A program made the translations under genes and the position numbers. Shown piece by piece: positions 1-13,713 of a DNA stretch of 14,455 nucleotides. The stretch comes from a virus. Position 1 is the first letter of the stretch. Each line of letters opens with the position of its first letter. The stretch lies in UHGV virus genome UHGV-0102464; one strand, written 5' to 3'. A model generated the notes under the pieces. That model was not told the DNA's origin. It did not search any database and was given only the letters and a program-made list of their open reading frames with translations.

Positions 1-176
1 CCGGAGGAAAACATGGTCAGGCAAAAGTGTAGCGGTATTAGGCGCAGCTATTTAGTTTTCCATATAAAATAAATAGTTGCGATTGTCTAATCTGTTGTAG
101 TAAATGTGCAGACATTGAAAGAGAAAGACCAGGTTTTTCTTTTCTAACCGAAGGGAAGAAAAGCAAGGGGAAACCG

Positions 177-220
177 GAGAAGCAAGCGCAGCGGCTTCGC
201 AGAGTTAGCCCTTGCTTCTC
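177..220. repeat. GC-rich inverted repeat (10-bp arms GAGAAGCAAG / CTTGCTTCTC, 24-nt spacer) within AT-rich non-coding flank
   Basis: Read directly: arms at 177-186 and 211-220 are exact reverse complements. No T-run follows on either strand, so it is not an obvious intrinsic terminator. Function unknown. Confidence 0.5.
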
Positions 221-930
221 TTATAATTGGCATTATTCATTCAAGAACAATAGGATCTTCGCTTGTACAAGCGAAGCTATAATAAAAACAATCAATTAAT
301 TATTTTAAAAGTATTAAACAAGAACCTATTGACATTCATAAAATACAAGTTATTTATAATGTATGCCATAAATAAAAAGTTTTATGTCATATGTATCCTG
401 CACTATGTGCAGTTAATGTACCACTTGTCCCATAGATGGGAATATTGGAAAGGTTACTTTGTTTTGAAGTAGCCTTTCGTCCTTCAATATTAACGATTAC
501 TTATTGCTATTACCAAGTCCAGTCGAATCGAAGAACATCTTTTATCTGAAACGACTCCTAATACCCGGTTAAAGCCACAATAACTCTCGCATACGTAGAC
601 CAAAGAAAAATTATGATATTAAATATGTGATTTTTTTTAGTGTTAAGTTGAATAATTAAATACTGGAGAGTTTTCTGTGCACTACCAATTGCTGGTTCAT
701 CTGTTCTGCCGCTGATGTTTCTGACGAATCTCCCGGTGACACAGAACTGTCCCTCTCTACCAGCCTTTATTCGACTCAATGTCCGGCTGCTGATACGCAG
801 TTATCCCTTCGTATCAATGACTGACACTTAAACGTAATGCTTTGGTTGCTGGCGTATCTGACAGCTTCTTCGGCGTGAAGGTCGTTGTGTAAGTATACTT
901 CTTGGTTTATTTAGGCTATATAAAACATGA

Positions 931-1827
931 CTATGACTTGCTGTTTTCAGTAAGAGTCTTATCATCCAAAGAATTTATTCTAGAAATTCTTTTTAACTCA
1001 TTAAGATAATCAACCTCGTTTTCTAAGAACCAATGAAGAACTTTAGAATTGCCAAGTAATTTATTAATATATGACTGGATTATAACGAATTTCAACATAT
1101 CTGAACCATACTCGGTTTGAAGCTTTTTCGTTTCTTCCGAAGTTGTTGCCATTTCTTGTTCCAGACGAAGTATGGTTTTTTTTATATCCTTTTTATAGGG
1201 AGTGTTTTTCCCTTTATTTACTATCATCGATGCCGGTGTTGCATCCAAGATGCTCATTGCAAATTTTTTACTATAATTATCAAAATTAATCATTGTACCG
1301 ACTGCTTCAATTTGGCGAATTGGCTTCATTTTCCTCAAAACGTCAAATGTAGCCTTAGGTATAGGTTTATCAGAAAGTTTCGCAATTACACTTGGATCTA
1401 TGCCGTTCATCACATTCGCTTTATCTTTTATGGCATCAACAGATATGCCCAAAGCAGCACTAAGTTTTTCAATTGATACTTTTGCCAGAGACTTAATTAT
1501 CATTCTATGTTCTTCAACTACATTTATATGATTCACTTGTTTGTTAGGAGTGAAAGCATCATCTATGCTCGAAAGTATACATGGGGCTTTTTCTATACCT
1601 AAGTCTTTTAAAGCCTCAACCCTTAAATGGCCATCAAGTATCTTAGTGACATCTTTATCTTTGTCATAGAATACTATTATTGGTTCAATAATACCTAAGC
1701 TTTCGATAGAGGTAACTATTTGATGATATTTATGGCTTCGCTTTACGTTTTCTAATAATTCCTTAGATGGAATTAACTTATTAGTTTCCAGGTAAATAAA
1801 ATTATCGCCAAAACGTATCTGAATCAT
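931..1827 (-). CDS. ParB/Srx-fold (ParBc-like) domain protein, 298 aa, paralog of the upstream gene
   Basis: ORF track 931..1827. The ATG at 1827-1825 overlaps the stop of the upstream gene (ATGA), indicating translational coupling. The N-terminal ~100 aa fit the ParB N-terminal pattern (..SIESLGIIEPIIVF..ILDGHLRVEALKDLGIEKAPCIL..), followed by an HTH-like stretch (KLSAALGISVDAIKDK). The C-terminal ~150 aa are unassigned. Very AT-rich. Confidence 0.7.
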   Translation of the reverse strand: MIQIRFGDNFIYLETNKLIPSKELLENVKRSHKYHQIVTSIESLGIIEPIIVFYDKDKDVTKILDGHLRVEALKDLGIEKAPCILSSIDDAFTPNKQVNHINVVEEHRMIIKSLAKVSIEKLSAALGISVDAIKDKANVMNGIDPSVIAKLSDKPIPKATFDVLRKMKPIRQIEAVGTMINFDNYSKKFAMSILDATPASMIVNKGKNTPYKKDIKKTILRLEQEMATTSEETKKLQTEYGSDMLKFVIIQSYINKLLGNSKVLHWFLENEVDYLNELKRISRINSLDDKTLTENSKS

Positions 1828-2719
1828 TTTAATACCTCTTTGTTTACTGGGGTTAATATCTGAGATGGTAGTTCTGAAAGATTCTCTTGTTCAAGTATAT
1901 GTTGAAAGCTTTTATTCATCATTATGATGTTAAAAATCTCATTTACTATTAGTAGGTTGGTTTTTATGAATTTTGAGTTGTTATAAACAGATTTATGTTC
2001 AGCGATACTATTTTCATAAAGCTCAATCAACTCCTCTGCAGTCATCCTTTTTGATGGTTTGTGATAATAAAATCCGGCTGCTTTTGCACCTTTATTCCCA
2101 ACTGTTCTTTGATTTAGAATGTGTTTTATCTTTATAATGTCCCGACTTTTTATTAATTTTTTATCATATGCTTCGGTAAGAATATCTTGTGCTTCCTCAG
2201 TTTCACATCTTGCAAATTGCACTGCGAGATACAGAGGCAAATTACCCCGTTCGACTGCTGAGAGAAGTTTATGCTCTCCCTTATCAAGTAGCATATTAAT
2301 ACTGCTCACCCAGTTCGATGAATATCCAGTAATCTCACTTATTTCGGAGTCTGAAAGTCCTCTGATTTTCATGTCTTTAATCACCTGTAATAACTCATTA
2401 GAACGTGGTCTTCTCCTTGCAATGTTTTCAACTAAACTCATAACGTAAGCATCTTCTTCTGATACATCTCTTATAATTGCTGGAATAATAGTTTCACCTA
2501 ATGCAACGAGAGCCTCTATTCTCCCTTGACCACAAATTAAAGCATATTTGAAATCGCCTTCATCAATAGCTCTTACGCTTATAGGCTTGCTTAATCCTCT
2601 TTTTTTATGCTTTCCTTTATTTCTTCATGCACTAACTTATTTCTTGTTCGTGGGTTAAGAAATTTTATTTTTGCAATCTCAATTTGAATTATTGGGAATT
2701 CATTTTTTTCAGGCAGCAT
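1824..2719 (-). CDS. ParB/Srx-fold (ParBc-like) domain protein interrupted by a frame change at an A7 homopolymer; full length (~298 aa) only with a -1 frameshift or a 1-nt tract length change
   Basis: The track ORF 1824..2441 (205 aa) begins MSLVENIARRRP.., which is the middle of a ParB domain. ParB homology continues upstream of that ATG in the same frame (RGLSKPISVRAIDEGDFKYALICGQGRIEALVALGETIIPAIIRDVSEEDAYV) up to a stop at 2627-2625, with no in-frame start. A second register begins at ATG 2719-2717, with a GAGGG Shine-Dalgarno about 6 nt upstream and overlapping the last codons of the recombinase gene. It reads MLPEKNEFPIIQIEIAKIKFLNPRTRNKLVHEEIKESIKK and then stops at 2593-2591. The two registers meet in the A7 run (T7 at 2600-2606 on the + strand). 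The joined protein aligns colinearly with the downstream paralog. Confidence 0.6.
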
Positions 2720-4265
2720 ATAGTTCCCTCACTTTCATGCGAGTAATAATTTGTAGAAGTTTATCAAGATTATCAAATCTATAGAGATCTAATCGAATGT
2801 TGTTTGTTTCCGTCATGCACATTTTATTATATTCGTTTTCAATCTTTGGTATGATATAAAAATCAAGAGGTGAAATATTTTGTGAATTCATTCGTATAAC
2901 AATTGTTATGTCTGCTTTCTGTGAGTTATCAAACCGGACTTTCCATCTAAGTTTACCTGATTTCATATGTATGCATTTAGTAACAAGGACGGAAATTAAA
3001 AACTCATCATTGATGTAAAGCATTGGGGCATATTTATACTCGTCTATATGACAGTTACTTTTTAAAATTTCACCCTTAAAATCCTCAATTATCTCTGAGT
3101 GAAATGATCTTAGTGCTTCATTTATTTTGAGATAGCTGTAATCATGTTCTGGCTTATAACCAATCAAAGTATATGCTCTTAAAAGACCACCAAATCGGGT
3201 TCTATAAACAGAAGATGAAGGGCCTGTATCATCTTCATCAATGATAAAGCCTGATAGTTTTCCATTAGATTCTAATTTTTGTTTTAGTTTTTCTAATAGA
3301 TCTTCATTAGTCAAATGAATGGATCGGAGCTGAATTATTTCTTGAGCTTTATTGTGTTTTTTCTTTGAAATAATAGGTTTATATGCCTTGTCACATCTAA
3401 CCCATTCATGTTTGGGGTTTTTTACAAGCCTACTTTTTAATTTAGATGAGGTTTTGTTATATATGTTGTTTCCAATATATTTTTCATTTGTCAAAATTTG
3501 ATGTATTTTTGCACGAGTCCATAATGTTCCATTTTCTGCAGGTATGTTCTGTTCATTTAATCTCTCAGCAATAATGAATTCTGGGACGTTATTATCTATA
3601 AAGAGATCATATATTCTATTTACAATTTTTATTTCATTTTTTGGTCCCGGAATTAATATTACCCTATCTGTTTGAATACTCTTTCTTTTGCGGAAACTCA
3701 ATATTTCTTTAGCTATGCCATTTTCGTCTACTAAAAGACGTCTCAGCCCATAACCAGCCATACCGCCTTGATGATAACCAAGCTTTATTAAATTTACTTG
3801 CCCTATAAATACCTTTTCAGATAAATTCCTGCTGTGATATGCAGCACTAGATCTTTTTATATTCAGTATAACAGAGGACTCTAAAGGGAAATCTTTAGTG
3901 GGTATAGGTTCGGAACAATATATAAGATCTACACCATTTCTCTCAAATAGAAAGGAATAATATGCCGCTTCATCACTATTTTGAAAACGACCAAAACGGC
4001 TCACATCATAAAATAATACAGCCTGTATATCTATTTTCTTTTGTTCTACATCGCTAAGTAACTGCTGCAAAGAATGCCTGCCTACGATACTGACTCCGCT
4101 CTTACCTGCATCATCGTAGGTATAAGCGATTTCCATATTGTTCTTTTCAGCATAATCTTTGATATATTCGGACTGATTATGTAAAGAATATTGCTGATGG
4201 TCGGTAGACATCCTCAAGTACTGCGCGACCCTAACTCTATGATTTTTGTCATTTTCGCTAGCCAT
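2709..4265 (-). CDS. Large serine recombinase (resolvase/invertase catalytic domain + recombinase domain; C-terminal half divergent)
   Basis: 518-aa ORF with an AGGT Shine-Dalgarno about 7 nt upstream of ATG 4265-4263. N-terminus carries the serine-recombinase catalytic motifs: VAQYLRMSTDHQ (Y-x-R-x-S-T-x-x-Q with nucleophile Ser), DDAGKSG, and VLFYDVSRFGR. A recombinase-domain pattern follows (..LIPGPKNEIKIVNRIYDLF..IAERLNEQNIPAENGTLWTRAKIHQILTNEKYIGNNIY..HEWVRCDKAYKPIISKKKHNKAQEI). I saw no CxxC zinc-ribbon pairs in the C-terminal ~220 aa. Confidence 0.85.
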   Translation of the reverse strand: MASENDKNHRVRVAQYLRMSTDHQQYSLHNQSEYIKDYAEKNNMEIAYTYDDAGKSGVSIVGRHSLQQLLSDVEQKKIDIQAVLFYDVSRFGRFQNSDEAAYYSFLFERNGVDLIYCSEPIPTKDFPLESSVILNIKRSSAAYHSRNLSEKVFIGQVNLIKLGYHQGGMAGYGLRRLLVDENGIAKEILSFRKRKSIQTDRVILIPGPKNEIKIVNRIYDLFIDNNVPEFIIAERLNEQNIPAENGTLWTRAKIHQILTNEKYIGNNIYNKTSSKLKSRLVKNPKHEWVRCDKAYKPIISKKKHNKAQEIIQLRSIHLTNEDLLEKLKQKLESNGKLSGFIIDEDDTGPSSSVYRTRFGGLLRAYTLIGYKPEHDYSYLKINEALRSFHSEIIEDFKGEILKSNCHIDEYKYAPMLYINDEFLISVLVTKCIHMKSGKLRWKVRFDNSQKADITIVIRMNSQNISPLDFYIIPKIENEYNKMCMTETNNIRLDLYRFDNLDKLLQIITRMKVRELYAA

Positions 4266-4435
4266 GCACGAAACCTCATGGGTGATTCAATACAATGTAG
4301 AGGATAAAATTGATCAAATTTTAACCGAATTCAACTGTTTTATCATTGATTAGAGCGAATTTGGTAGATCTTCGAGGTGTATGATAATCGAGAAGAGATG
4401 TGAATTATTTAGCTGATATGACCGACAGCTTTCGT

Positions 4436-4485
4436 TATGTGGACTCAATGTCCCCATTTGTAAATGGCTATGCTTAGTCCACATA
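4436..4485. repeat. Nested palindrome: 10-bp inverted repeat TATGTGGACT / AGTCCACATA enclosing inner palindrome CCATTT-GT-AAATGG
   Basis: Read directly: outer arms at 4436-4445 and 4476-4485, inner palindrome at 4454-4467. It lies in the intergenic region between the integrase stop (4548) and the recombinase start (4265). No flanking T-run, so a protein-binding or recombination site is more likely than a terminator. Confidence 0.5.
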
Positions 4486-4547
4486 GGTTAATGGTGTGAT
4501 TATTAATTCTTTAACTAAATCAAGATAGTTAATCCATCATGGGAGAG

Positions 4548-5777
4548 TTATGCGGCAATAACTTTGCATTTTTGAGACGAAACATAGTCACTCCACCATT
4601 GCATGAGAACCACCCGTTCAGTGAGATACTCTGCACGATTGTAGGCTGCAATTATTTCATCTTTCTTCGAGTGGGCAAGGGCGGCTTCTAAGACATCAGT
4701 CCTAAACTTGCCAGACTCCTCAGCAGCCGTTCTAGCAATGGATCGCATACCGTGAGCTACAAGCTCACCTCCGAAGCCCATACGGATTATGGCCGCATTA
4801 GCTGTTTGTTCATGCATGTGATTGAGTGGAGCTTTGATACTGGGGAACACCCACTCTCTATGCCCGCTGATGACTTTCATTAAATCCAAAACTCGCAAAG
4901 CTTCTTTGCTCAGTGGAACTTTGTGAGGCTTCTTCATTTTCATAAACTCCGCCGGGATGTTCCACATGCCAGTTTCAATATCAATATCTGACCATCTTGT
5001 GCGAACAGCTTCACCTGGGCGAACCCATGTGAGAAGTTGCCACTCAATCAGTAGCCTTGTTTCCAAACGGATAGAAGCATTGTTTAGAGCAACCAAGAAG
5101 CGAGGGAGTTCGGAAGGGGGTAATGCTGGCATATTCTGTTTTTTTGGCTTGCTGAACCGTTGCCCCAGGTTGTCTGCCGGGTTGAATTCTATGAGTTCTT
5201 CTGTTGCTGCATAGCGGAAAATTTCATTCAGGCGGGATATGATGCGGCGAAGTGTTTCAAGGACACCTCGTTTTTCTATGGGTTCTAAATGCTGTTTAAG
5301 CATTTTAGGGCGAATCTCCTTAATTGGGGTATCACCCAATGTGGAAAAGATATTTCTCTCTAGGCTTCGCCAGATGTCGTTAGCATGATCTTGGGAGATG
5401 CCTGACGTTTTGACTTTCTCATCAAGCCACTTCTTGGCTACTGCTTGAAATGTATGTTCCGTGGCATCTTTCAGTGCATTGGCTTTTTGGTTGTTATGAA
5501 CTTGGGGGTCTATACCATTTGTAAGCAACGACAAGTATTCATCACGTAAAGCTCGTGCCTTCGCAAGTGTAAGGTGAGGATAGGTTCCTAAGCTCACCTT
5601 AGTTCGCTTTTTGGTCACAGGCACTGCATATCTGAAATACCAATTTTTCTTCCCTCCCTTCGCCAGGGGAGCGATTCGCAACAGCAAACCATCGCCGTCA
5701 AAAAGGTTAACCTCTTTTTCGGCAGGTTTGGTGCTTTTGATTTCAGTGTCAGTGAGCTTCTTAGCGATTTTGGCCAT
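4548..5777 (-). CDS. int: Tyrosine site-specific integrase, P4/IntA (CP4-57-like) family
   Basis: The track ORF runs to 5858, but the conserved N-terminus MAKIAKKLTDTEIKSTKPAEKEVNLFDGDGLLLRIAPLAKGGKKNWYFRY (arm-type DNA-binding domain typical of P4-like integrases) starts at ATG 5777-5775, so I call that start. The C-terminal catalytic region carries the HxxR box (LVAHGMRSIARTAAEE) and the catalytic tyrosine context (IIAAYNRAEYLTERV). Confidence 0.9.
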   Translation of the reverse strand: MAKIAKKLTDTEIKSTKPAEKEVNLFDGDGLLLRIAPLAKGGKKNWYFRYAVPVTKKRTKVSLGTYPHLTLAKARALRDEYLSLLTNGIDPQVHNNQKANALKDATEHTFQAVAKKWLDEKVKTSGISQDHANDIWRSLERNIFSTLGDTPIKEIRPKMLKQHLEPIEKRGVLETLRRIISRLNEIFRYAATEELIEFNPADNLGQRFSKPKKQNMPALPPSELPRFLVALNNASIRLETRLLIEWQLLTWVRPGEAVRTRWSDIDIETGMWNIPAEFMKMKKPHKVPLSKEALRVLDLMKVISGHREWVFPSIKAPLNHMHEQTANAAIIRMGFGGELVAHGMRSIARTAAEESGKFRTDVLEAALAHSKKDEIIAAYNRAEYLTERVVLMQWWSDYVSSQKCKVIAA

Positions 5778-5875
5778 GTTTGGGACCCTCGATTTTAGGA
5801 CCCATCTTCGTGGGTCCCATTCAGGGTGCCATAACTCGTAGTTCTCAGCAATTCTCACTAGACTACAATAGACGT

Positions 5876-6687: not shown

Positions 6688-6713
6688 AGGCCACCTCACG
6701 GTGGCCTTTTTTG
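6688..6713 (+). terminator. Rho-independent terminator upstream of lysis cassette 1
   Basis: AGGCCACC (6688-6695), loop TCAC, GGTGGCCT (6700-6707), then a T-run to 6712. Confidence 0.75.
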
Positions 6714-6761
6714 TTTCCCCTCAACCTTCTGAGAGGGTCAACAGCAATAAGAGGGGGCAAA

Positions 6762-7166
6762 ATGTCCGCAGAACCGATATCTGCAACGGTAACGGCAGGC
6801 GTGGCCGCCGGCACTACCGGAATCACCTTCGCGACGATGTTTCCAGAAGCGACACCCGCTGTAATGCTTTGCTCACTTGCCGGGGCTGCTCTTTATGTCC
6901 TGAGCAGTGAAGACCACAAAATCTGGAAGCAGATACTGTTCGCGCTCATCTCATTCATTGGTGGAGTCTACTGCGCCGGAACAGCATCTGAAATCATCGC
7001 TGCGCTAATCAATGCGGCATTAAGTCACCTTTCTCCTCCAGTTTCCGTGAAGGTATCTCCAGCTATGGGTGCCCTGCTGGCTTCATCGGTTTCTGTCACC
7101 ATCCTGGCTCGCATCCTCAAACGGTCGAAGACAGGAGACTTACCCGGATTGAAGGGGGAAGAATGA
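6762..7166 (+). CDS. Putative holin / lysis-associated membrane protein (134 aa)
   Basis: ATG 6762 with a GAGGGGG Shine-Dalgarno. Hydrophobic segments (..AGVAAGTTGITFATMF.., ..ILFALISFIGGVYCAGTA.., ..MGALLASSVSVTILARIL..). First gene of a lysis cassette; stop overlaps the next start (ATGA). Confidence 0.5.
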   Translation: MSAEPISATVTAGVAAGTTGITFATMFPEATPAVMLCSLAGAALYVLSSEDHKIWKQILFALISFIGGVYCAGTASEIIAALINAALSHLSPPVSVKVSPAMGALLASSVSVTILARILKRSKTGDLPGLKGEE

Positions 7167-7444
7167 CGTGGCAAACACTGATCCTGAACATTAACGCTGT
7201 TGCATGCATCCTCATCACCATACGCCTGATGTTCTTCAGGAAGCGGAGCTTACGGCGCCGCCGTCTGATGGAGTTTCTGGCCTATGGGCTGATCCTCGCT
7301 CCAGCGTTTACCGCTTTCCGCATCTGGCATGGTGATTACGTGCAGGTCGACTACGGAGAGTTGGTCGTCAACCTTGTTGTCTGCATAGCTGTATGGCGAG
7401 CACGTGGCAACATCGCAAGAATAGCAGGGGAAAGCACAACGTGA
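7163..7444 (+). CDS. Small membrane protein (93 aa), holin/antiholin-like
   Basis: ATG 7163 overlaps the upstream stop, with a GAAGGGGG Shine-Dalgarno. Two hydrophobic helices separated by a basic stretch (RKRSLRRRRL). Lies between the putative holin and the endolysin. Confidence 0.4.
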   Translation: MTWQTLILNINAVACILITIRLMFFRKRSLRRRRLMEFLAYGLILAPAFTAFRIWHGDYVQVDYGELVVNLVVCIAVWRARGNIARIAGESTT

Positions 7445-8070
7445 ACCAATCACAATTTCAAAAGGCGGCTGGCATTAGCGCCGGGCTCGCTTCGCGCTGG
7501 TTTTCGCATATCGATGCTGCAGTGAAGGAATTCGGCATAACCGCGCCGCTCGATCAGGCCATGTTTATCGCGCAGATGGGCCATGAGTCCGGCGGTTTCA
7601 CCCGGCTGGTGGAAAACCTGAACTATGCGGCAGAAAACCTGGTACCTACGTTCGGCAAGCATCGCATTACTGCGCAGCAGGCCGCCGCACTCGGCAGAAC
7701 GGCAACGCAACCGGCAAATCAGAAAGCGATAGCCAATCTGGTTTACGGCGGTGAGTGGGGCAAAAAGAACCTGGGCAACCAGGTTGCTGGTGATGGCTGG
7801 AAATATCGCGGCCGAGGCCTTAAGCAAATCACCGGGCTTAGCAACTATCGCAGTTGCGGCCAGGCTCTCAAACTGGATCTGGTTTCGTATCCAGAACTAC
7901 TGGAACGAGATGAATACGCTGCGCGCTCCGCCGCATGGTTCTACGTCTCGCACGGATGCCTGCTCCATTCAGGCGATGTGGAGCGCGTCACGCTGCTTAT
8001 CAATGGCGGACGTAACGGGCTGGATAAACGCCGCGCGCTGTTTAACCTGGCGAAGTCTGTGCTGGTGTGA
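7441..8070 (+). CDS. Endolysin, glycoside hydrolase family 19 (chitinase-like lysozyme)
   Basis: GH19 hallmark motifs: FIAQMGHESGGF and YRGRGLKQITGLSNYR (compare the GRGPxQ(L/I)(S/T)xNY motif of GH19 chitinases). Start placed at GTG 7441, which overlaps the upstream stop (GTGA); the alternative ATG 7393 lacks a Shine-Dalgarno. Confidence 0.8.
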   Translation: MNQSQFQKAAGISAGLASRWFSHIDAAVKEFGITAPLDQAMFIAQMGHESGGFTRLVENLNYAAENLVPTFGKHRITAQQAAALGRTATQPANQKAIANLVYGGEWGKKNLGNQVAGDGWKYRGRGLKQITGLSNYRSCGQALKLDLVSYPELLERDEYAARSAAWFYVSHGCLLHSGDVERVTLLINGGRNGLDKRRALFNLAKSVLV

Positions 8071-8077
8071 GGTCACT

Positions 8078-8347
8078 ATGGGATTAGAAACAATCGTCGG
8101 TATTGCTGCCCTGATAATGGCAGCTATCGCTGGTGCTTTTGGCATTGGTCATTCACGCGGCACCAGCAAAGCGGAAGCCAAAGCCGATCAGCAGCGCACT
8201 GAAGAACGTGCAACAGCTACTGAAGCTGTTGCTGAACGCCGGGTAGAGACAACAAAAGGAGCCAGGGATGTACAGCAAACTGTTAATCATCTTCCTGATG
8301 ACGATGTTGACCGTGAGTTGCGCGAAAACTTTACCCGCAAAACCTGA
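8078..8347 (+). CDS. Rz-like inner-membrane spanin (i-spanin) component, copy 1
   Basis: ATG 8078, 8 nt after the endolysin stop. N-terminal transmembrane helix (IVGIAALIMAAIAGAFGIG) then a charged helical region. The track ORF 7751..8347 is the same frame extended upstream into the endolysin and is rejected. Assignment is by position and architecture. Confidence 0.6.
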   Translation: MGLETIVGIAALIMAAIAGAFGIGHSRGTSKAEAKADQQRTEERATATEAVAERRVETTKGARDVQQTVNHLPDDDVDRELRENFTRKT

Positions 8348-8489
8348 ATTAACGGACACAGCCTGTGACTGGGTGGACATTATCTACCTCACTGAACACG
8401 ATATTGCCGTGCTGGATAAGCAGACGAAGCGGGACATATTGGTGCACAATAAATCAGTGCAGGCTAACTGTGCAAAAAAAATAAATTGA
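8268..8489 (+). CDS. Rz1-like outer-membrane lipoprotein spanin (o-spanin), overlapping the 3' end of the Rz-like gene in another frame, copy 1
   Basis: ATG 8268 with an AAAAGGAG Shine-Dalgarno. Signal peptide plus lipobox-like ..MTMLTVSCAK; several Cys. The ORF begins inside the Rz-like gene and extends past it (P2 lysB/lysC-like overlap). Its sequence is conserved in copy 2. Confidence 0.6.
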   Translation: MYSKLLIIFLMTMLTVSCAKTLPAKPELTDTACDWVDIIYLTEHDIAVLDKQTKRDILVHNKSVQANCAKKIN

Positions 8490-8590
8490 AAATGAGAAAT
8501 GAAAGTAGTAAATATGTGCCAAGCTGTGATGAAACCAGCAATGAAGCACGTTCTTTAATCCGCATTCTCTGAAAAAGAGAAAGAATTATA

Positions 8591-8618
8591 AGCCTCGGTT
8601 TAATACCGGGGCTTTTTT
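8591..8618 (+). terminator. Rho-independent terminator after lysis cassette 1
   Basis: AGCCTCGG (8591-8598), loop TTTAATA, CCGGGGCT (8606-8613), then a T-run to 8618. Confidence 0.7.
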
Positions 8619-8768
8619 GTATCTGCATTTCACCGCGCACCGCAGCGCATTCAATCACGTCGAACCCAACCTTTTGGAATGAGCCGTTGAGGAGTCAGTT
8701 AGTGCTGGCGAGCCTCGACGGGCTGATTTCCTATGCGACAAAGGTTCATTTCAAAGAAGGTAAACGCA

Positions 8769-9356
8769 ATGCACGACTCAACAAGCGGGTTGGTCTTTGG
8801 AGTTGGCAAACTCGATGTACACCCCGTTATCAATAAAGGGGTAAAACTCAGGTCATACAGAGTATGGTTTGGGATGCTGAAAAGATGCTACGGAAAGGGA
8901 ACGGCATTTAAAAGTGAATACCAAGGATGCTCAGTCGATGAGCAATGGCACAAGTTCAGTAATTTTCAGCAATTTTACGACAAGAATTACTTCGAAGGCG
9001 CCGAGTTAGACAAGGATTTGCTTTATCTGGGTAATAAAGTTTACTCAAAAGATAGGTGCGTGTTCATCCCGTCATTCCTCAACGCCTTTATCACTGTTAG
9101 GCCGCCAAGAAACAACAACCTTCCGATTGGCGTATACCAAGTTAGCAACAGCCGGAAGTATCAATCAGAAATACAAGTTAATGGTGAAAGAAAATATCTA
9201 GGACTCTTTGAAGATCCGCATGAAGCTCACTCCGCTTGGTTTAATGAAAAGCTGAATATGGCAATTTCCTACAAAGAGTTGTGCGATTCTCTGCACCCTG
9301 ATTTGTATGGCGGACTCATAACAAAAATAGAAAGCATGCGAGTCTATCCGGATTAA
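8769..9356 (+). CDS. Hypothetical protein with AP2-like DNA-binding domain in C-terminal half
   Basis: ATG 8769 with a GAAGG Shine-Dalgarno 8 nt upstream (the track start 8733 has none). The C-terminal stretch IGVYQVSNSRKYQSEIQVNGERKYLGLFEDPHEAHSAWFNEK resembles the AP2 domain found in phage HNH/AP2 proteins. The N-terminal half (..SYRVWFGMLKRCYGK..) is unassigned. Confidence 0.5.
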   Translation: MHDSTSGLVFGVGKLDVHPVINKGVKLRSYRVWFGMLKRCYGKGTAFKSEYQGCSVDEQWHKFSNFQQFYDKNYFEGAELDKDLLYLGNKVYSKDRCVFIPSFLNAFITVRPPRNNNLPIGVYQVSNSRKYQSEIQVNGERKYLGLFEDPHEAHSAWFNEKLNMAISYKELCDSLHPDLYGGLITKIESMRVYPD

Positions 9357-9481
9357 TAAATTAATAATTCTACATTTTCAGGGCCCTTGGGAATCACCCT
9401 CGACGCTTTGTTGGTAAATCAGCCCGACGGCCCTGACCTTCTCACACACAGCTTCCCGATCTTTCATCGGAGGCGGTAACT

Positions 9482-9793
9482 ATGGCTAAGCGTATGCAAG
9501 ACAAAGAGAGCATTGCCGGGATGTCCTGGCTGGTTCTGCTGATCATTGCTTGCTGGGGTGGACTTGTCCGCTACCTGATAGATGTGAAGCAGAGCAAGGC
9601 AACATGGAGCTTGATCAATGCTCTTGCCCAAATGGTGGTTTCAGGGTTTACCGGCGTTATTGCTGGCCTGGTGAGCATTGAAAGCGGACTGAGCATTTAC
9701 ATGATTCTGGCAACCGCGGGGATAAGCGGCGCGATGGGCTCCGTAGCGCTCACGTATTTCTGGGAACGAATCACCGGAGTGAAAGCACAATGA
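9482..9793 (+). CDS. Holin (103 aa), lysis cassette 2
   Basis: ATG 9482 with a GGAGG Shine-Dalgarno 8 nt upstream. Hydrophobic helices; stop overlaps the endolysin start (ATGA). Confidence 0.6.
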   Translation: MAKRMQDKESIAGMSWLVLLIIACWGGLVRYLIDVKQSKATWSLINALAQMVVSGFTGVIAGLVSIESGLSIYMILATAGISGAMGSVALTYFWERITGVKAQ

Positions 9794-10329
9794 CAGCAGA
9801 CCAGATTATCGAGGGGATCCTCGGCAAGGAGGATGGTTATGTCGATCATCCGTCGGATAAAGGCGGGCCGACCCGCTGGGGCATCACGCAGACCACCGCC
9901 CGTGCACATGGCTACACCGGTGATATGCGGAACCTGCCCAGGGAAACAGCAAAGCAAATCCTGCTGAGCGATTACTGGACCGGCCCCCGGTTTGACCAGG
10001 TGGCAGCTCTATCTACGTTACTGGCAGATGAGCTTTGCGACACTGGCGTGAACATGGGGCCATCTGTAGCCAGTAAGTTTTTCCAGCGCTGGCTGACCGC
10101 AATGAATATGCGCGGAAAGCTGTATCCCGATCTGATTCCGGATGGCGCCATTGGTCCCCGAACCATCACCGCGCTTAAGGGATACCTTTCCGCCCGCGGG
10201 AAAGAGGGTGAACAGGTTCTGTTGCGTGCGCTGAACTGCAGCCAGGGTGCCAGATACCTCGAACTGGCGGAGGGCCGCGAAGCCAACGAGGATTTTCTCT
10301 ACGGCTGGGTTAAGGAGCGTGTCCTGTGA
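9790..10329 (+). CDS. Endolysin, glycoside hydrolase family 108 N-terminal domain + peptidoglycan-binding C-terminal domain
   Basis: N-terminal EDGYVDHPSDKGGPTRWGIT matches the GH108 signature (EGGYVDDPxDxGGxTxxGIT). C-terminal ..IPDGAIGPRTITALKGYL.. resembles the PG-binding-3 type domain. Confidence 0.8.
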   Translation: MTADQIIEGILGKEDGYVDHPSDKGGPTRWGITQTTARAHGYTGDMRNLPRETAKQILLSDYWTGPRFDQVAALSTLLADELCDTGVNMGPSVASKFFQRWLTAMNMRGKLYPDLIPDGAIGPRTITALKGYLSARGKEGEQVLLRALNCSQGARYLELAEGREANEDFLYGWVKERVL

Positions 10330-10670
10330 AGATGATCATTTTCGCTTTGCTTGTGCTGGTGGCTGTGCTCGTTCTGTTACTTCTGCGCAAATATACCCGG
10401 CTGGAGTTCGTAGGGCATGCCAGCTTGCTGCTGAAAACGTGGTCTGTAAAGCTGGGAGCTATCGGCGCGCTGGTTGGTGTATGGGCGCAGTCGTTCCCGG
10501 ATGCTGCGCTGCACGCCTGGGCGGTGCTGCCGCCGGATATCAAAAACATCCTGCCGCCAAACATCGTTGCGTTGATTAGCCCTGCGCTGGTGGTGCTGGC
10601 CGTACTATCGCAATACGTACGCCAGCCAGCATTGAAAGAAAAGGCCGACGAACTGAAGGAGCAGCAATGA
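10326..10670 (+). CDS. Membrane protein between endolysin and spanins (LysA/antiholin-like position)
   Basis: Start GTG 10326 (overlaps the endolysin stop) or ATG 10332, with an AAGGAG Shine-Dalgarno at 10310-10315. Strongly hydrophobic (IIFALLVLVAVLVLLLL.., ..LVALISPALVVLAVL..). Stop overlaps the Rz-like start (ATGA). Confidence 0.5.
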   Translation: MKMIIFALLVLVAVLVLLLLRKYTRLEFVGHASLLLKTWSVKLGAIGALVGVWAQSFPDAALHAWAVLPPDIKNILPPNIVALISPALVVLAVLSQYVRQPALKEKADELKEQQ

Positions 10671-10942
10671 GCTTTGAAATTATCGCGGGACTGGTGGTCG
10701 TCATCCTGGGTGCTATTGCTGGCGCGTTCGGCATTGGTCATGCTCGCGGGGCCAGTAAGGCGAAAGCCAAAGCTGATCAGCAACGTACCGAAGAGAACGC
10801 CGCTGCTACTGTCGCCGCGGCAGAACGCCGTGCTGAAGTCACGAAAGGGGCCAGCGATGTACAGGAAGACGTTAAGCGTATGGGCGATGACGATGTTGAT
10901 CGGGAGTTGCGCGAAAAGTTTACCCGCCCCGGTAGTCGTTGA
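10667..10942 (+). CDS. Rz-like i-spanin component, copy 2
   Basis: ATG 10667 with a GAAGGA Shine-Dalgarno. Roughly two-thirds to three-quarters identical to copy 1 by eye (AIAGAFGIGH..KADQQRTEE..DDDVDRELRE.FTR conserved). Confidence 0.6.
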   Translation: MSFEIIAGLVVVILGAIAGAFGIGHARGASKAKAKADQQRTEENAAATVAAAERRAEVTKGASDVQEDVKRMGDDDVDRELREKFTRPGSR

Positions 10943-11081
10943 CACGGCCTGCAGCTGGGTGCGGATCATCTACCTGACTGACCACGATATCGATGTGTTG
11001 GATAAGCAGACCAAGCGCGACATTCTGGCGCACAACAAAGCAGTGCAGGCCAACTGCCAGAGCATTACCCCTACTCATTGA
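10857..11081 (+). CDS. Rz1-like o-spanin lipoprotein, copy 2 (overlapping and extending past the Rz-like gene)
   Basis: ATG 10857 with an AAAGGGG Shine-Dalgarno. MYRKTLSVWAMTMLIGSCAK.. then DTACSWVRIIYLTDHDIDVLDKQTKRDILAHNKAVQANC, closely matching copy 1. The track ORF 10674..11081 is the same frame with a spurious upstream extension. Confidence 0.6.
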   Translation: MYRKTLSVWAMTMLIGSCAKSLPAPVVVDTACSWVRIIYLTDHDIDVLDKQTKRDILAHNKAVQANCQSITPTH

Positions 11082-11249: not shown

Positions 11250-11366
11250 ATGATTGCAACCATAGGAACCATTATCGTTTGGACGCTCATTGTTGTGGAT
11301 GGAGTTATTGGGATTCTGTGCGCGTTTATCGGTCTTATGTTCCTCATTAACTTTCCCATTCGCTAA
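11250..11366 (+). CDS. Possible small hydrophobic peptide (38 aa), not in ORF track
   Basis: ATG 11250 preceded by GAAGAGG. Translation MIATIGTIIVWTLIVVDGVIGILCAFIGLMFLINFPIR is a single predicted transmembrane helix. Too short for the track; existence uncertain. Confidence 0.3.
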   Translation: MIATIGTIIVWTLIVVDGVIGILCAFIGLMFLINFPIR

Positions 11367-11470
11367 CCCCACCAAGGGATAAACCAGCCTTCATCCCCAC
11401 GTGAGGATATTACAGAAGCCACTGACTGAGTGGCTTAGATAATGTTCCCGACATCGCACAGAGGTAAAAC

Positions 11471-11716
11471 ATGGCAGAGATCACACCGGCAGAACAGATT
11501 CGACTGAATCTGCTTTCCACCCTGAACTACGACACCGCGGCCGCTGCTAAGGCGATTGAGTTCGTCCAGGATAGCCAGCTCAAATATCAGCTGTTCATCC
11601 AGCAGTACAACCGCGTGACAACTGAATCAGAAGTTGTGGCGCGGACCATCAAAGCGGTTCAGGAGTCGGCGGAAGCGTTAGCGCTGTTTGATACCGCGGC
11701 TGAGCAGGCCAGTTAA
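11471..11716 (+). CDS. Hypothetical protein (81 aa)
   Basis: ATG 11471 with a GAGGT Shine-Dalgarno at 11461-11465. No recognisable motif. Confidence 0.5.
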   Translation: MAEITPAEQIRLNLLSTLNYDTAAAAKAIEFVQDSQLKYQLFIQQYNRVTTESEVVARTIKAVQESAEALALFDTAAEQAS

Positions 11717-11719
11717 GGC

Positions 11720-11755
11720 ATTACAGCAGGCATTCACGTAGTGCCTGTGATAATG
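11720..11755 (+). repeat. 36-bp repeated element, copy 1 (ATTACAGCAGGCATTCAC-GT-AGTGCCTGTGATAATG) with internal inverted repeat and extended -10-like TGTGATAAT
   Basis: Read directly; 34/36 identical to the copy at 12061-12096. Contains CAGGCA..TGCCTG inverted arms and TG-n-GATAAT. Confidence 0.6.
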
Positions 11756-12025
11756 TTAAAGCTCCTGTATAAGGGGCAGTTGTATGATGTCATGCAACGA
11801 AGCAACCAAACTATGGAAAGTCCGGGTAATGGTTTTGGAGTGAATGTGACGTTTCGCAACGATATAGATGGCTACTTTTTCCTGTTGCTTAGTATGTGGC
11901 CAGTGCTAATGGTTTTATTCCTGGGATTGTCCTCTGCATTTTACGGTGTGTTAATGCCTAAAACGGCAATTGCTTGTCTGGTGATCGCTGCCGCTGTGGG
12001 TACCGTTGGGTGGTTCTATGGATAG
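11741..12025 (+). CDS. Hypothetical small membrane protein (start uncertain)
   Basis: The track ORF begins at GTG 11741 inside the repeat; the true start may be an internal ATG. C-terminal part is hydrophobic (FFLLLSMWPVLMVLFLGL.., ..IACLVIAAAVGTVGW..). Confidence 0.4.
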   Translation: MPVIMLKLLYKGQLYDVMQRSNQTMESPGNGFGVNVTFRNDIDGYFFLLLSMWPVLMVLFLGLSSAFYGVLMPKTAIACLVIAAAVGTVGWFYG

Positions 12026-12060
12026 GCATCCTGGAAACATTTGGTCAGGTTATAGACTGT

Positions 12061-12096
12061 ATTACAGCAGGCATTCACTGAGTGCCTGTGATAATG
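12061..12096 (+). repeat. 36-bp repeated element, copy 2 (ATTACAGCAGGCATTCAC-TG-AGTGCCTGTGATAATG)
   Basis: Differs from copy 1 only at the 2 central bases; lies about 40 nt upstream of the AT-rich moron start. Confidence 0.6.
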
Positions 12097-12134
12097 ATAA
12101 ATTACTTACTCACACCTTTTGTGAGGTAAGAGAA

Positions 12135-12431
12135 ATGAAGCATCTTGTACATTCTTTTTTATCTGTATCATCTGACGGTGCAACTATTAAGTACGAAATA
12201 TATTCTCAAGATCAGGAATTAGGACATTTAAAGAAGATCCCGGAGGGTAGTTGTCAGATCATTAAGTCGATATATCAAAAGGATAGCAATAGTTTTAAGT
12301 TAATAGACTTAAACGTAAATGTTGAGGATTTATTTAAGGCAAATCAACCCAAGCCAAATACTTGGTACTCGGATGGGCAAGACCGTGTAAATCTCGACAT
12401 GCTTATCAATTATCTTGATAACTTAAAATAA
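12135..12431 (+). CDS. AT-rich moron-like gene, hypothetical protein (98 aa)
   Basis: ATG 12135 with a GAGGT Shine-Dalgarno about 7 nt upstream. Composition is markedly more AT-rich than flanking phage genes. Preceded by the repeat/promoter-like element and followed by a strong intrinsic terminator. No recognisable motif. Confidence 0.6.
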   Translation: MKHLVHSFLSVSSDGATIKYEIYSQDQELGHLKKIPEGSCQIIKSIYQKDSNSFKLIDLNVNVEDLFKANQPKPNTWYSDGQDRVNLDMLINYLDNLK

Positions 12432-12450
12432 TTGTAAGTTGAAATCATTT

Positions 12451-12478
12451 AGACCTCGAATCCCGAGGTCTTTTTTTT
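12451..12478 (+). terminator. Rho-independent terminator after the moron
   Basis: AGACCTCG (12451-12458), loop AATCC, CGAGGTCT (12464-12471), then T8 to 12478. Confidence 0.8.
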
Positions 12479-12487
12479 GGAGGTTTT

Positions 12488-12721
12488 ATGCGCCTGACTG
12501 TTCTCAGTAACGACCCTGGTGAACGTATATGGCCTAGCCGTGAACGCATAACGGTGTACCTCAACGGTGTCGAGGTCAAGTACGTTTTTACCGCCGATGA
12601 TCAGAAGGGCGAAGTTATCGCTGCTACGCTCGACTGTCTTGGCAACCTCATAGCCGAGAATGGCGAGATTAAGCGCCAGAAGCTGTTAGGTCAGGTGAGG
12701 ATAGAGCGATGCCCGCGCTAA
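12488..12721 (+). CDS. Hypothetical protein (77 aa) immediately upstream of and overlapping the HNH endonuclease gene
   Basis: ATG 12488 with a GGAGG Shine-Dalgarno just upstream; overlaps the HNH start by 13 nt. Confidence 0.5.
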   Translation: MRLTVLSNDPGERIWPSRERITVYLNGVEVKYVFTADDQKGEVIAATLDCLGNLIAENGEIKRQKLLGQVRIERCPR

Positions 12722-13059
12722 TACCCCGCGCCTGCCGTAAGCGTGGATGTCCTGGAACTACCACAGACCGCTTAGGCTACTGCGAGAAGCACCGCAACGA
12801 AGGCTGGCAACAGCATCAACAGGGAAAGAGTCGCCACGAGCGTGGCTACGGTAGCCAGTGGGATATCAGGCGTGCGCGCATCCTGAAACGCGACAACCAT
12901 TTATGCCAGAACTGCCTTCGCAGCGGGCGAGCTGTCGCAGCAAAGACGGTTGACCACATCAAGGCCAAGGCTCATGGGGGTACCGATGACGATTCGAACC
13001 TCGAAAGCCTGTGCTGGCCTTGCCATCGAACGAAAACCGGGCGCGAACGCATAAAGTGA
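12709..13059 (+). CDS. HNH endonuclease (phage packaging-associated type)
   Basis: Cys/His-rich: ..CRKRGCPGTT..GYCEKH.. and the HNH core ..VDHIKAKAHGGTDDDSNLESLCWPCH... AGGTGAGGA Shine-Dalgarno before ATG 12709. Position directly upstream of the terminase small subunit is typical. Confidence 0.85.
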   Translation: MPALIPRACRKRGCPGTTTDRLGYCEKHRNEGWQQHQQGKSRHERGYGSQWDIRRARILKRDNHLCQNCLRSGRAVAAKTVDHIKAKAHGGTDDDSNLESLCWPCHRTKTGRERIK

Positions 13060-13215
13060 TATCGATTCTCATTTGAGGCGAGGCAGAGGGGGCGGGGTCA
13101 AATCCCTGACGGCAAAGGCCAAAAGGACCGCCGCCTAACCTTTTTTCACACCGCCGCAGGTTAGAAAACTTTTTTTTGGGGTCCCCCATCCAATGATTAA
13201 TAGGAGTTTTCGATT

Positions 13216-13713
13216 ATGCCAGGACCACCGAAAACCCCGACACATCTGGCTTTAGTGAAGGGGAACCCATCCAAGCGCCCGATCAATAAGAACGAGCCAA
13301 AACCCCCGTCAGGGGTCCCCCCAATACCGAAACATTTCGATAAACAGGGTAAGTACTGGTTCAAACGGATTGGTGAGGAACTTGATGCCGTCGGCGTGTT
13401 GACCACGCTGGATGCTAAAGCGCTGGAGTTGTTGATAGAAGCCTATGTTGAATACCGGCATCACTGCGACACGCTTGATCGTGAAGGTTACACCTATGCC
13501 GTCTACAGCGAAGATGATTCAGATGAAGGAGGGGAGCGGGAAATCAGAATGATCAAACCGCACCCTGCAGCAGTCATGAAGGCTGACGCGTGGAAACGGA
13601 TCAGAGCGATGCTGAGCGAATTCGGCATGACACCTGCCAGCCGATCAAAGGTTGGTGCAAAAGACCCGGCAGAAGCCGACCCACTGGAAGAATTTCTTAA
13701 AAAGCGCAAATGA
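13216..13713 (+). CDS. Terminase small subunit (P27-family-like)
   Basis: ATG 13216 with a TAGGAG Shine-Dalgarno. ..LDAKALELLIEAYVEY.. pattern and placement between the HNH gene and the large terminase gene. Confidence 0.75.
   Translation: MPGPPKTPTHLALVKGNPSKRPINKNEPKPPSGVPPIPKHFDKQGKYWFKRIGEELDAVGVLTTLDAKALELLIEAYVEYRHHCDTLDREGYTYAVYSEDDSDEGGEREIRMIKPHPAAVMKADAWKRIRAMLSEFGMTPASRSKVGAKDPAEADPLEEFLKKRK

Follow-up and report, generated by a model that had tools for sequence, protein, structure and literature searches.

In lambdoid phages, a moron in the concept of Juhala and Hendrix is an additional gene that brings its own promoter and terminator and lies between genes adjacent in relatives; its insertion is ascribed to illegitimate recombination, with no conserved flanks. 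Integron attC arrays are composed of promoterless single-gene cassettes with a strand-specific imperfect hairpin beside the stop codon. The REP and BIME elements of enterobacterial chromosomes are imperfect palindromes that number in the hundreds, lie in either orientation, frequently form clusters and are associated with RAYT transposases; REPs stabilise the upstream mRNA and, near a stop codon, can affect translation termination. The intercistronic RNase III hairpins of phage T7 comprise about 20 bp in two stems and leave a protective 3' stem on the upstream message. The promoter-early stem-loops (PeSLs) of T4-type phages contain complete strong sigma-70 promoters (-35, -10 and AT-rich upstream region), and their G/C-tract stem-loops were shown to terminate transcription (Arbiol et al. 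2010, PMC2839356). Here, we analyse a stretch of 14,455 nucleotides from the virus genome UHGV-0102464, in the following called the window, in which an AT-rich open reading frame (ORF) for a 98-aa protein, ORF98, had been annotated as a moron. We find that ORF98 is preceded by one of three copies of a hairpin, H, which is an evolutionarily maintained sense-strand structure and coincides exactly with the junctions of different gene cassettes in temperate phages of Enterobacterales.

Like a moron, ORF98 is an extra gene compared with related loci, is foreign in composition, carries its own intrinsic terminator and lies inside a late operon. Unlike in a moron, its upstream element is a shared boundary hairpin, a conserved flank that is also found before essential packaging genes, and its own promoter is only putative. 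As in attC arrays, promoterless single-gene cassettes are each bounded by a strand-specific imperfect hairpin beside the stop codon. The ends of H, however, read CATTAC...GATAATG and not the R''/R' core RYYYAAC...GTTRRRY, with no R or L box consensus; H is far shorter than most attC sites, there is no Pc promoter, and the slot contains no integron integrase in the loci examined. As imperfect palindromes, H and REPs are alike in length (about 35-40 nt) and in being transcribed at gene 3' ends within operons, but H is phage-borne, restricted to one slot and one orientation, present in 1-3 copies per phage genome and different in sequence. With the T7 RNase III sites it shares the form of an internal-loop hairpin between cistrons of a long phage transcript; H is shorter, has no sequence similarity to them, and its cleavage is only putative. 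The closest likeness is to PeSLs. In both cases the stem-loop can overlap a -10-like box, flanks orphan genes, is concentrated in a hyperplastic region and coincides with junctions of insertion, deletion or replacement. H differs from PeSLs in its unrelated sequence, in its RNA-type covariation and in the lack of a U-tract and of a -35 element (none better than 3/6 positions). We do not class H as a PeSL, because it has no complete promoter and no G/C-tract terminator stem and is located in the late operon of Enterobacterales temperate phages.

A maintained sense-strand hairpin at cassette junctions

The region between the lysis and the packaging genes of the window contains the following features.

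11408-11444, + strand: H copy 1, TATTACAG-AAGCCACT-GACTG-AGTGGCTT-AGATAATG (56 bits with the covariance model, fold z -3.6, repeat family D3)
11471-11716, + strand: cassette 1, DUF2560/phrog_571 gene, 81 aa (Pfam and PHROG)
11718-11756, + strand: H copy 2, GCATTACAG-CAGGCATT-CACGT-AGTGCCTG-TGATAATGT (63 bits, fold z -5.1)
11813-12025, + strand: cassette 2, gene for a 70-aa protein with two hydrophobic segments, phrog_36556 (ATG at 11813, frame open up to 11741)
12060-12096, + strand: H copy 3, the 36-bp element of the initial annotation (65 bits, fold z -5.4)
12105-12130, + strand: leader hairpin pairing the GAGG Shine-Dalgarno (12123-12126) of ORF98 (-9 to -11 kcal/mol, z -1.8 to -2.2)
12135-12431, + strand: ORF98, cassette 3, AT-rich gene for a 98-aa soluble protein of an orphan family
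12451-12478, + strand: intrinsic terminator, 8-bp stem followed by T8
12488-12721, + strand: orf77, first gene of the packaging module (module 12488-13713)

The start of the cassette 2 gene is uncertain, because the PHROG profile covers its last 57 residues only.

The element that had been described upstream of ORF98 as a 36-bp sequence with an extended -10-like motif is present at 12061-12096 (ATTACAG...TGTGATAATG, with the -10-like TGTGATAAT at 12087-12095), but it is not private to this gene: it is one of three hairpin copies in the window, and TGTGATAAT is the 3' arm of copy 3. A repeat search places the three copies at 11409-11449, 11720-11760 and 12061-12101, spaced by 311 and 341 nt. 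The pattern ATTACAG-N22-GATAATG occurs three times (11409-11444, 11720-11755 and 12061-12096) where 0.01 occurrences are expected, and none of 200 shuffles reached three. Copies 1, 2 and 3 precede the DUF2560 gene, the gene with two hydrophobic segments and ORF98, respectively; copy 1 ends 26 nt before the DUF2560 start, and the TAA stop of DUF2560 lies 1 nt before copy 2. H is about 40 nt long and is composed of an outer stem (C)AUUA/UAAU(G), a 2x2 internal loop CA/GA, a covarying inner stem of 8-9 bp and a 5-nt loop near CACUG. The inner stem reads AAGCCACU/AGUGGCUU in copy 1 and CAGGCAUU/AGUGCCUG in copies 2 and 3, so that two compensatory pair changes are found within one phage. In copy 2, the 3' arm contains an AUG (11752-11754) in frame with the downstream membrane-protein ORF. 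A role of the 3'-arm AUG as start codon was rejected, as the stem pairs it and only some copies of H have it in the frame of the downstream gene.

A covariance model built from 8 copies retrieved about 200 sense-strand copies of H in 92 loci. Among 90 distinct copies, 97.3% of pair cells hold standard pairs, and 11 of the 15 pairs are changed on both sides. No shuffle out of 500 attained these values, and pairing fell to only 29-51% when the structure was slid by 1-3 columns. The same pairing result was obtained for 86 copies from species-representative genomes; at positions free of the search pattern, these copies divide between alternative pairs (C-G against A-U in 40 vs 32, C-G against G-C in 44 vs 35, A-U against C-G in 55 vs 25). 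An independent alignment of 30 diverse copies with MAFFT and RNAalifold recovered this structure again, and 11 of its 16 pairs are compensatory. Non-Watson-Crick pairs are 166 G.U against 19 A.C, and 206 of 218 copies (about 95%) are co-oriented with the local genes in loci that were fetched regardless of strand. Since the tolerance of G.U exists in one orientation and this orientation is tied to the direction of transcription, we read H as a fold of the sense RNA; formally, folding of that DNA strand could give the same tolerance. Near-invariant parts of H are its outer stem, internal loop and CACUG loop.

The distribution of H is wide within Enterobacterales. BLAST matches of 86-100% identity are found in phi80 (just after rha), mEp390, Pectobacterium phage ZF40 (just after a mom-like gene), Salmonella phage ST64B and many Klebsiella phages. 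A strict pattern applied to one genome per species (185,579 species) gave 79 loci, all of them in Enterobacterales, from Enterobacteriaceae, Erwiniaceae, Yersiniaceae and Pectobacteriaceae. In IMG/VR, at least 120 contigs among the matches listed contain H. It is present, unannotated and in one copy each, in 94 of 5,426 complete E. coli genomes, including DH10B, DH5alpha and Nissle 1917. Unfiltered searches of whole genomes show one copy in phi80 and 2-3 copies in Klebsiella phage ST11-VIM1phi8.2, in both cases in the interval from lysis to terminase genes and on the late strand. In the genomes checked, H is thus confined to the lysis-packaging slot. Rfam gave no match at gathering thresholds and chance-level matches in a sensitive scan (E > 0.7), which speaks against a known RNA family in that database. 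H is absent from the detailed feature table of phi80, and exact-sequence literature searches found no paper with its sequence. A transcriptome paper on Salmonella prophages says nothing on the ST64B copy (PMC7067206). Other candidate identities were also rejected. H is no intrinsic terminator, as its stem is followed by GAUAAUGC... with no T-run or U-tract, and a comparison of sequences by eye gave no convincing match to a CRISPR-repeat mimic, boxB/nut, attC, dif/Xer or an IS200/IS605 end.

The position of H relative to genes is equally constrained. In 92 copies, H begins at most 1 nt away from the stop codon that ends the upstream ORF (consensus flank TAAGG), and the next ATG is typically 21-34 nt downstream; H usually ends 14-35 nt before the next start codon. 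In 80 loci retrieved through DUF2560, the layout is a varying lysis cassette, H, one to four H-separated cassettes and at least four types of packaging genes. The same DUF2560 cassette is joined via H to 18 downstream and 21 upstream gene families. Where loci with different partners are compared in pairs, similarity stops no more than about 14 nt from GATAAT in 1229 of 1247 pairs. Overall, 74 gene families are found directly downstream of H (294 loci), and the genes preceded by it include DUF2560, the membrane-protein gene, HNH and several small-terminase families. As a separate observation, many related loci contain two copies of H about 330 nt apart with no ORF of at least 45 aa between them.

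ORF98, an AT-rich accessory gene with its own terminator

An accessory cassette acquired by horizontal transfer, ORF98 is the last of three in the variable post-lysis slot of a Klebsiella-type lambdoid prophage. Its description as far more AT-rich than its neighbours is borne out by composition statistics. The gene has 33.3% GC, and 34.3% at third codon positions, against 46% for the membrane-protein gene, 54.5% for DUF2560 and 53-59% for orf77 and HNH; with 42-59% GC in the 14 other genes of the lysis-to-terminase stretch, ORF98 is atypical. In a 300-nt profile, GC reaches its minimum of 0.32 at 12151-12450 and returns to 0.53-0.59 directly downstream.

The initial annotation also saw no recognisable motif in the product, and this agrees with our searches: no Pfam family was matched at E <= 0.01 and none in PHROGs, PADLOC or NCBIfam, and a sequence search of the PDB gave no match. 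The homology and structure-prediction searches it had proposed did return a small orphan family, but no informative family or fold. The family consists of 19 clusters (90% identity clustering) with 53-99% identity from Klebsiella, Enterobacter, Citrobacter and Winslowiella, and only 7 representatives came out of an exhaustive profile search across 1.84 billion representative proteins. The length is 96-98 aa in 16 of the 19 clusters, and a C-terminal motif NQPxPNTWYSDGxDRV is nearly invariant. Because the nonsynonymous value pN is about 0.17-0.24 per site while synonymous sites (pS) are saturated, ORF98 is under purifying selection. A spurious ORF is ruled out by the conserved length, the conserved C-terminal motif and a pN far below pS. 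The protein has a pI of 5.8 and no hydrophobic segment by hydropathy. An AlphaFold model shows a four-stranded beta-meander followed by two helices (mean pLDDT 87.8), for which structure searches gave generic propeller-blade matches or nothing. The N-terminal beta-meander has a weak profile match (E = 6e-6) to P0025 (263 aa), a protein that, from its sequence, looks like a PepSY-repeat protein. The Pfam PepSY model itself gave no significant match to the N-terminal sheet of ORF98 (E <= 0.01). Two AT-rich cargo genes downstream of H with a terminator at their end (L273, 1934-2185, and L187, 2208-2468; loci are numbered with L) share a '(K/F)(Y/F)EI(Y/F)' strand motif with ORF98. Alignments of these 'KYEIF'-motif genes with ORF98 are weak (hhalign probability 59% and 11%), and the shared motif could hint at a broader family of small, beta-rich cargo proteins. 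Sb55 of ST64B, which lies in the equivalent position, is unrelated.

Conservation elsewhere, a point on which the initial annotation had made its moron assignment depend, is found. Homologues of ORF98 occur in four different phage backbones and in all contexts occupy the same slot between lysis cassette and packaging genes, while both flanking modules vary. The adjacent terminase types are HNH with Terminase_4, GpA, DUF2280 with Terminase_6, and Terminase_2 with Terminase_6. The homologues are AT-rich in every context (34-41% GC against roughly 44-55% in the flanks). Related loci without ORF98 have DUF2560-H followed directly by HNH or by other cargo. The distance from H to the ORF98 homologue is about 36 nt in the window and in L007, about 125 nt in L004 and about 380 nt in L010. 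In L004 and L006, the copy about 125 nt upstream of the homologue is an intact variant of H; directly upstream of the gene, these two loci also carry a decayed H of the same sequence in both, in which the inner stem has lost its complementarity and the outer 5' arm, CACTG loop and GATAAT persist.

The perfect stem and T8 terminator reported at 12451-12478 is confirmed exactly. It reads AGACCTCG-AATCC-CGAGGTCT followed by T8, with a perfect 8-bp stem including five G-C pairs and a 5-nt loop, and its T-run extends into the ribosome-binding site of orf77, whose ATG is at 12488. Every ORF98 homologue examined is followed by an intrinsic terminator, each time of different sequence. Among the gene families downstream of H, 21 of 74 have less than 42% GC, and 16 of these 21 carry a terminator. 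Other AT-rich cargo before the orf77 homologue in L034 (about 4548-4597) and L040 (about 4560-4611) likewise has its own, unrelated terminator, which sits just 5' of the conserved GGAGG-N-ATG of orf77. Upstream of ORF98, the leader hairpin at 12105-12130 has equivalents of different sequence in L004 (3973-3995) and L007 (3970-4002); with weak statistics, translational control through sequestration of the Shine-Dalgarno is possible.

Directly upstream of the copy of H that precedes the ORF98 homologue, L005 (3581-3838) and L010 (3343-3579) contain genes with an Acb2/Tad1 hairpin domain. Acb2/Tad1 is a family of anti-CBASS and anti-Thoeris sponges, and the slot therefore carries known anti-defence cargo. 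Our best guess, held weakly, is that ORF98 encodes a late-made counter-defence or host-modulating protein, because it is predicted to be soluble and is always found in the accessory slot that holds Acb2/Tad1-like genes in two relatives.

The role of the hairpin and rival explanations

The reading we favour, at somewhat better than even chances, is that the cassettes are bounded by a sense-RNA hairpin, that ORF98 is a foreign accessory cassette expressed in the late operon, and that H serves both as a spacer and as an exchange joint. The cassettes would be transcribed mainly within the antiterminated late operon. Within this transcript, H would act as a self-folding intergenic spacer that protects the upstream message at its 3' end, or processes it there, and makes the downstream ribosome-binding site independent of whichever gene lies upstream. 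As DNA, H would provide a shared patch of homology at which otherwise unrelated phages swap cassettes. The ORF98 terminator would have arrived with the AT-rich cargo and would halt polymerase that lacks the antiterminator before the packaging genes, while the late complex reads through.

Several observations weigh against this reading. The junction data fit recombination at H as well as retention of H wherever cassettes join, and the patches of identity are short for homologous recombination (8-9 nt in the outer arms, about 37 nt in the commonest variant). GATAAT and both loops, internal and terminal, are more nearly invariant than maintenance of a helix requires, which suggests a putative sequence-specific reader. 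The anti-defence guess for ORF98 is a weak one, drawn from its neighbourhood only. An independently transcribed moron would require just such a conserved terminator part-way along a late operon; GATAAT makes a good -10 hexamer, near-invariant (86-90 of 90 copies at each position), the TG of the extended motif at -15/-14 is present in about half of the copies, and the decayed H in L004 (about 3925-3962) and L006 has lost the stem and retains GATAAT about 40 nt before the ATG. These last points would fit the classic architecture seen by the initial annotation, with ORF98 transcribed in the lysogen from TGTGATAAT as an extended -10 sigma-70 promoter, the stem and T8 ending the transcript, and H as a portable, PeSL-like promoter cassette. 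Consistent with this, a terminator follows not only every ORF98 homologue but also many other AT-rich cargo genes downstream of H, and PeSLs are a precedent for stem-loops that overlap promoter boxes (PMC2839356). We nevertheless regard an autonomous moron as unlikely. Of five moron features, three are found for ORF98 (inserted extra gene, foreign composition, own terminator), and its promoter is putative, with only the -10-like GATAAT present as part of H. A sigma-70 scan detected no + strand promoter at 12061-12096, the best -35 candidate of H matching 3/6 positions; as the scan requires a -35 element, this result is compatible with an extended -10 promoter. At -14, the G covaries with the base it pairs to (C-G 42, A-U 27, G-U 18) and so behaves as a structural position, rare variants such as TTGTAATGG keep or improve the helix yet lose the -11 A, and tolerance of G.U on the sense strand only is a signature of RNA. 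Thus the conservation of H follows base pairing and not promoter rules. In 23 loci, HNH and the small and large terminase genes follow directly on H and no terminator is present; the examples shown have gaps of 14-21 nt, and in three of them the next ATG is 95 nt away. H also precedes several families of small terminase. This argues against a constitutive promoter, which would express a packaging nuclease in lysogens, and with a gap of 14 nt a transcript from such a promoter would begin inside the Shine-Dalgarno. Of the promoter/operator and terminator that had been assigned to ORF98, the terminator therefore stands, and the supposed promoter element is a widespread sense-RNA hairpin that is also found before terminase genes. 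From these comparisons we conclude that H is probably a general intercistronic element of late operons; its GATAAT may give weak promoter activity in some contexts.

The exact coincidence of H with cassette junctions that have many partners on both sides, together with the stop codon that abuts it, could also be explained if H were primarily a DNA recombination site, a single-strand or cruciform hairpin of the attC or PeSL type used by a phage or host recombinase, with its RNA structure incidental. The separation of tandem lysis cassettes by H in L049, L053 and L055 and a strand-specific structure, as in attC bottom strands, point the same way. Yet no recombinase gene co-occurs in the slot of the loci examined, sequence inspection shows no attC R-box consensus (GTTRRRY) in H, and the order and orientation of cassettes are never inverted. 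Moreover, about 95% of the copies are oriented with transcription, which an RNA role explains directly, and we consider a primary role in DNA recombination improbable. Dyad symmetry, near-invariant half-sites ATTAC...GATAAT and repetition before successive genes would likewise be expected of a duplex palindromic operator for a dimeric regulator of each downstream gene, the operator-like repeat of the initial annotation. Against it, the inner arms vary freely but in a compensatory manner, both within one phage (copy 1 vs copies 2 and 3) and across phages, and the excess of G.T over A.C (166 vs 19) has no meaning for duplex DNA. A check of the loci examined, which was not systematic, showed no regulator gene visibly common to phages with H. 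An operator appears very improbable. A wider proposal, which we put forward tentatively and with considerable doubt, is that H marks an unrecognised cassette system of late operons in Enterobacterales temperate phages, in which it would act as a sequence-specific RNA insulator or processor of each accessory gene and as DNA linker for the exchange of accessory, anti-defence and lysis/packaging modules between unrelated phages, with ORF98 as cargo with a new counter-defence function.

Genomic surroundings and implications

The slot is flanked in the window by lysis and packaging genes, and the left part holds genes of a different kind.

931-1827 and 1824-2441, - strand: two ParB/RepB-like genes
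2709-4265, - strand: large serine recombinase
4548-5858, - strand: tyrosine integrase with Arm-DNA-binding domain
6711-7166 and 7163-7444, + strand: holins of lysis cassette A
7393-8070, + strand: GH19-type endolysin of cassette A
8078-8489, + strand: Rz/Rz1 of cassette A
9482-11081, + strand: lysis cassette B overall (Pfam and PHROG matches)
9482-9793, + strand: LydA-type holin of cassette B
9790-10329, + strand: GH108 endolysin of cassette B
10326-10670, + strand: DUF7940 of cassette B
10667-10942, + strand: Rz-like spanin of cassette B, with an embedded Rz1-like ORF that ends at 11081
12709-13059, + strand: HNH endonuclease of the packaging module
13216-13713, + strand: small terminase subunit

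Two complete lysis cassettes are thus arranged in tandem on the + strand at 6711-11081. Their Rz/Rz1 DNA is 73-81% identical, and an HNH endonuclease gene (phrog_953, 8733-9356, 42% GC) lies between them. L049, L053 and L055 likewise have two lysis cassettes, there with H between them. Between the Rz1 of cassette B and H copy 1, the window contains an ORF for a very hydrophobic protein of 38 aa (11250-11366, MIATIGTIIVWTLIVVDGVIGILCAFIGLMFLINFPIR). The block at 1-5858 is AT-rich (30-38% GC). Its tyrosine integrase directly adjoins the lysis genes; an early or regulatory region is missing there, which is unusual for the gene order of a lambdoid prophage. The block could be a separate integrated element or part of a rearranged prophage.

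Taken alone, ORF98 is another orphan accessory gene, and the boundary hairpin is the notable result. H is strongly covarying and sequence-conserved, occurs in at least four families of Enterobacterales and, in the loci examined, is located at the joins of lysis, accessory and packaging genes of otherwise unrelated temperate phages. If H is an RNA spacer or processing site, it would be a natural counterpart of the synthetic insulator hairpins that are used for predictable multi-gene operons. If H guides recombination, it bears on the old dispute whether phage mosaicism arises through conserved linkers or through random illegitimate joins and selection. Should the reading as a cassette system be true, H would supply the boundary sequence that the modular theory of phage evolution has postulated for a long time. 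Beyond that, H provides a sequence handle for finding the variable post-lysis slot, and thereby candidate genes for anti-defence and lysogenic conversion, in enterobacterial prophages.

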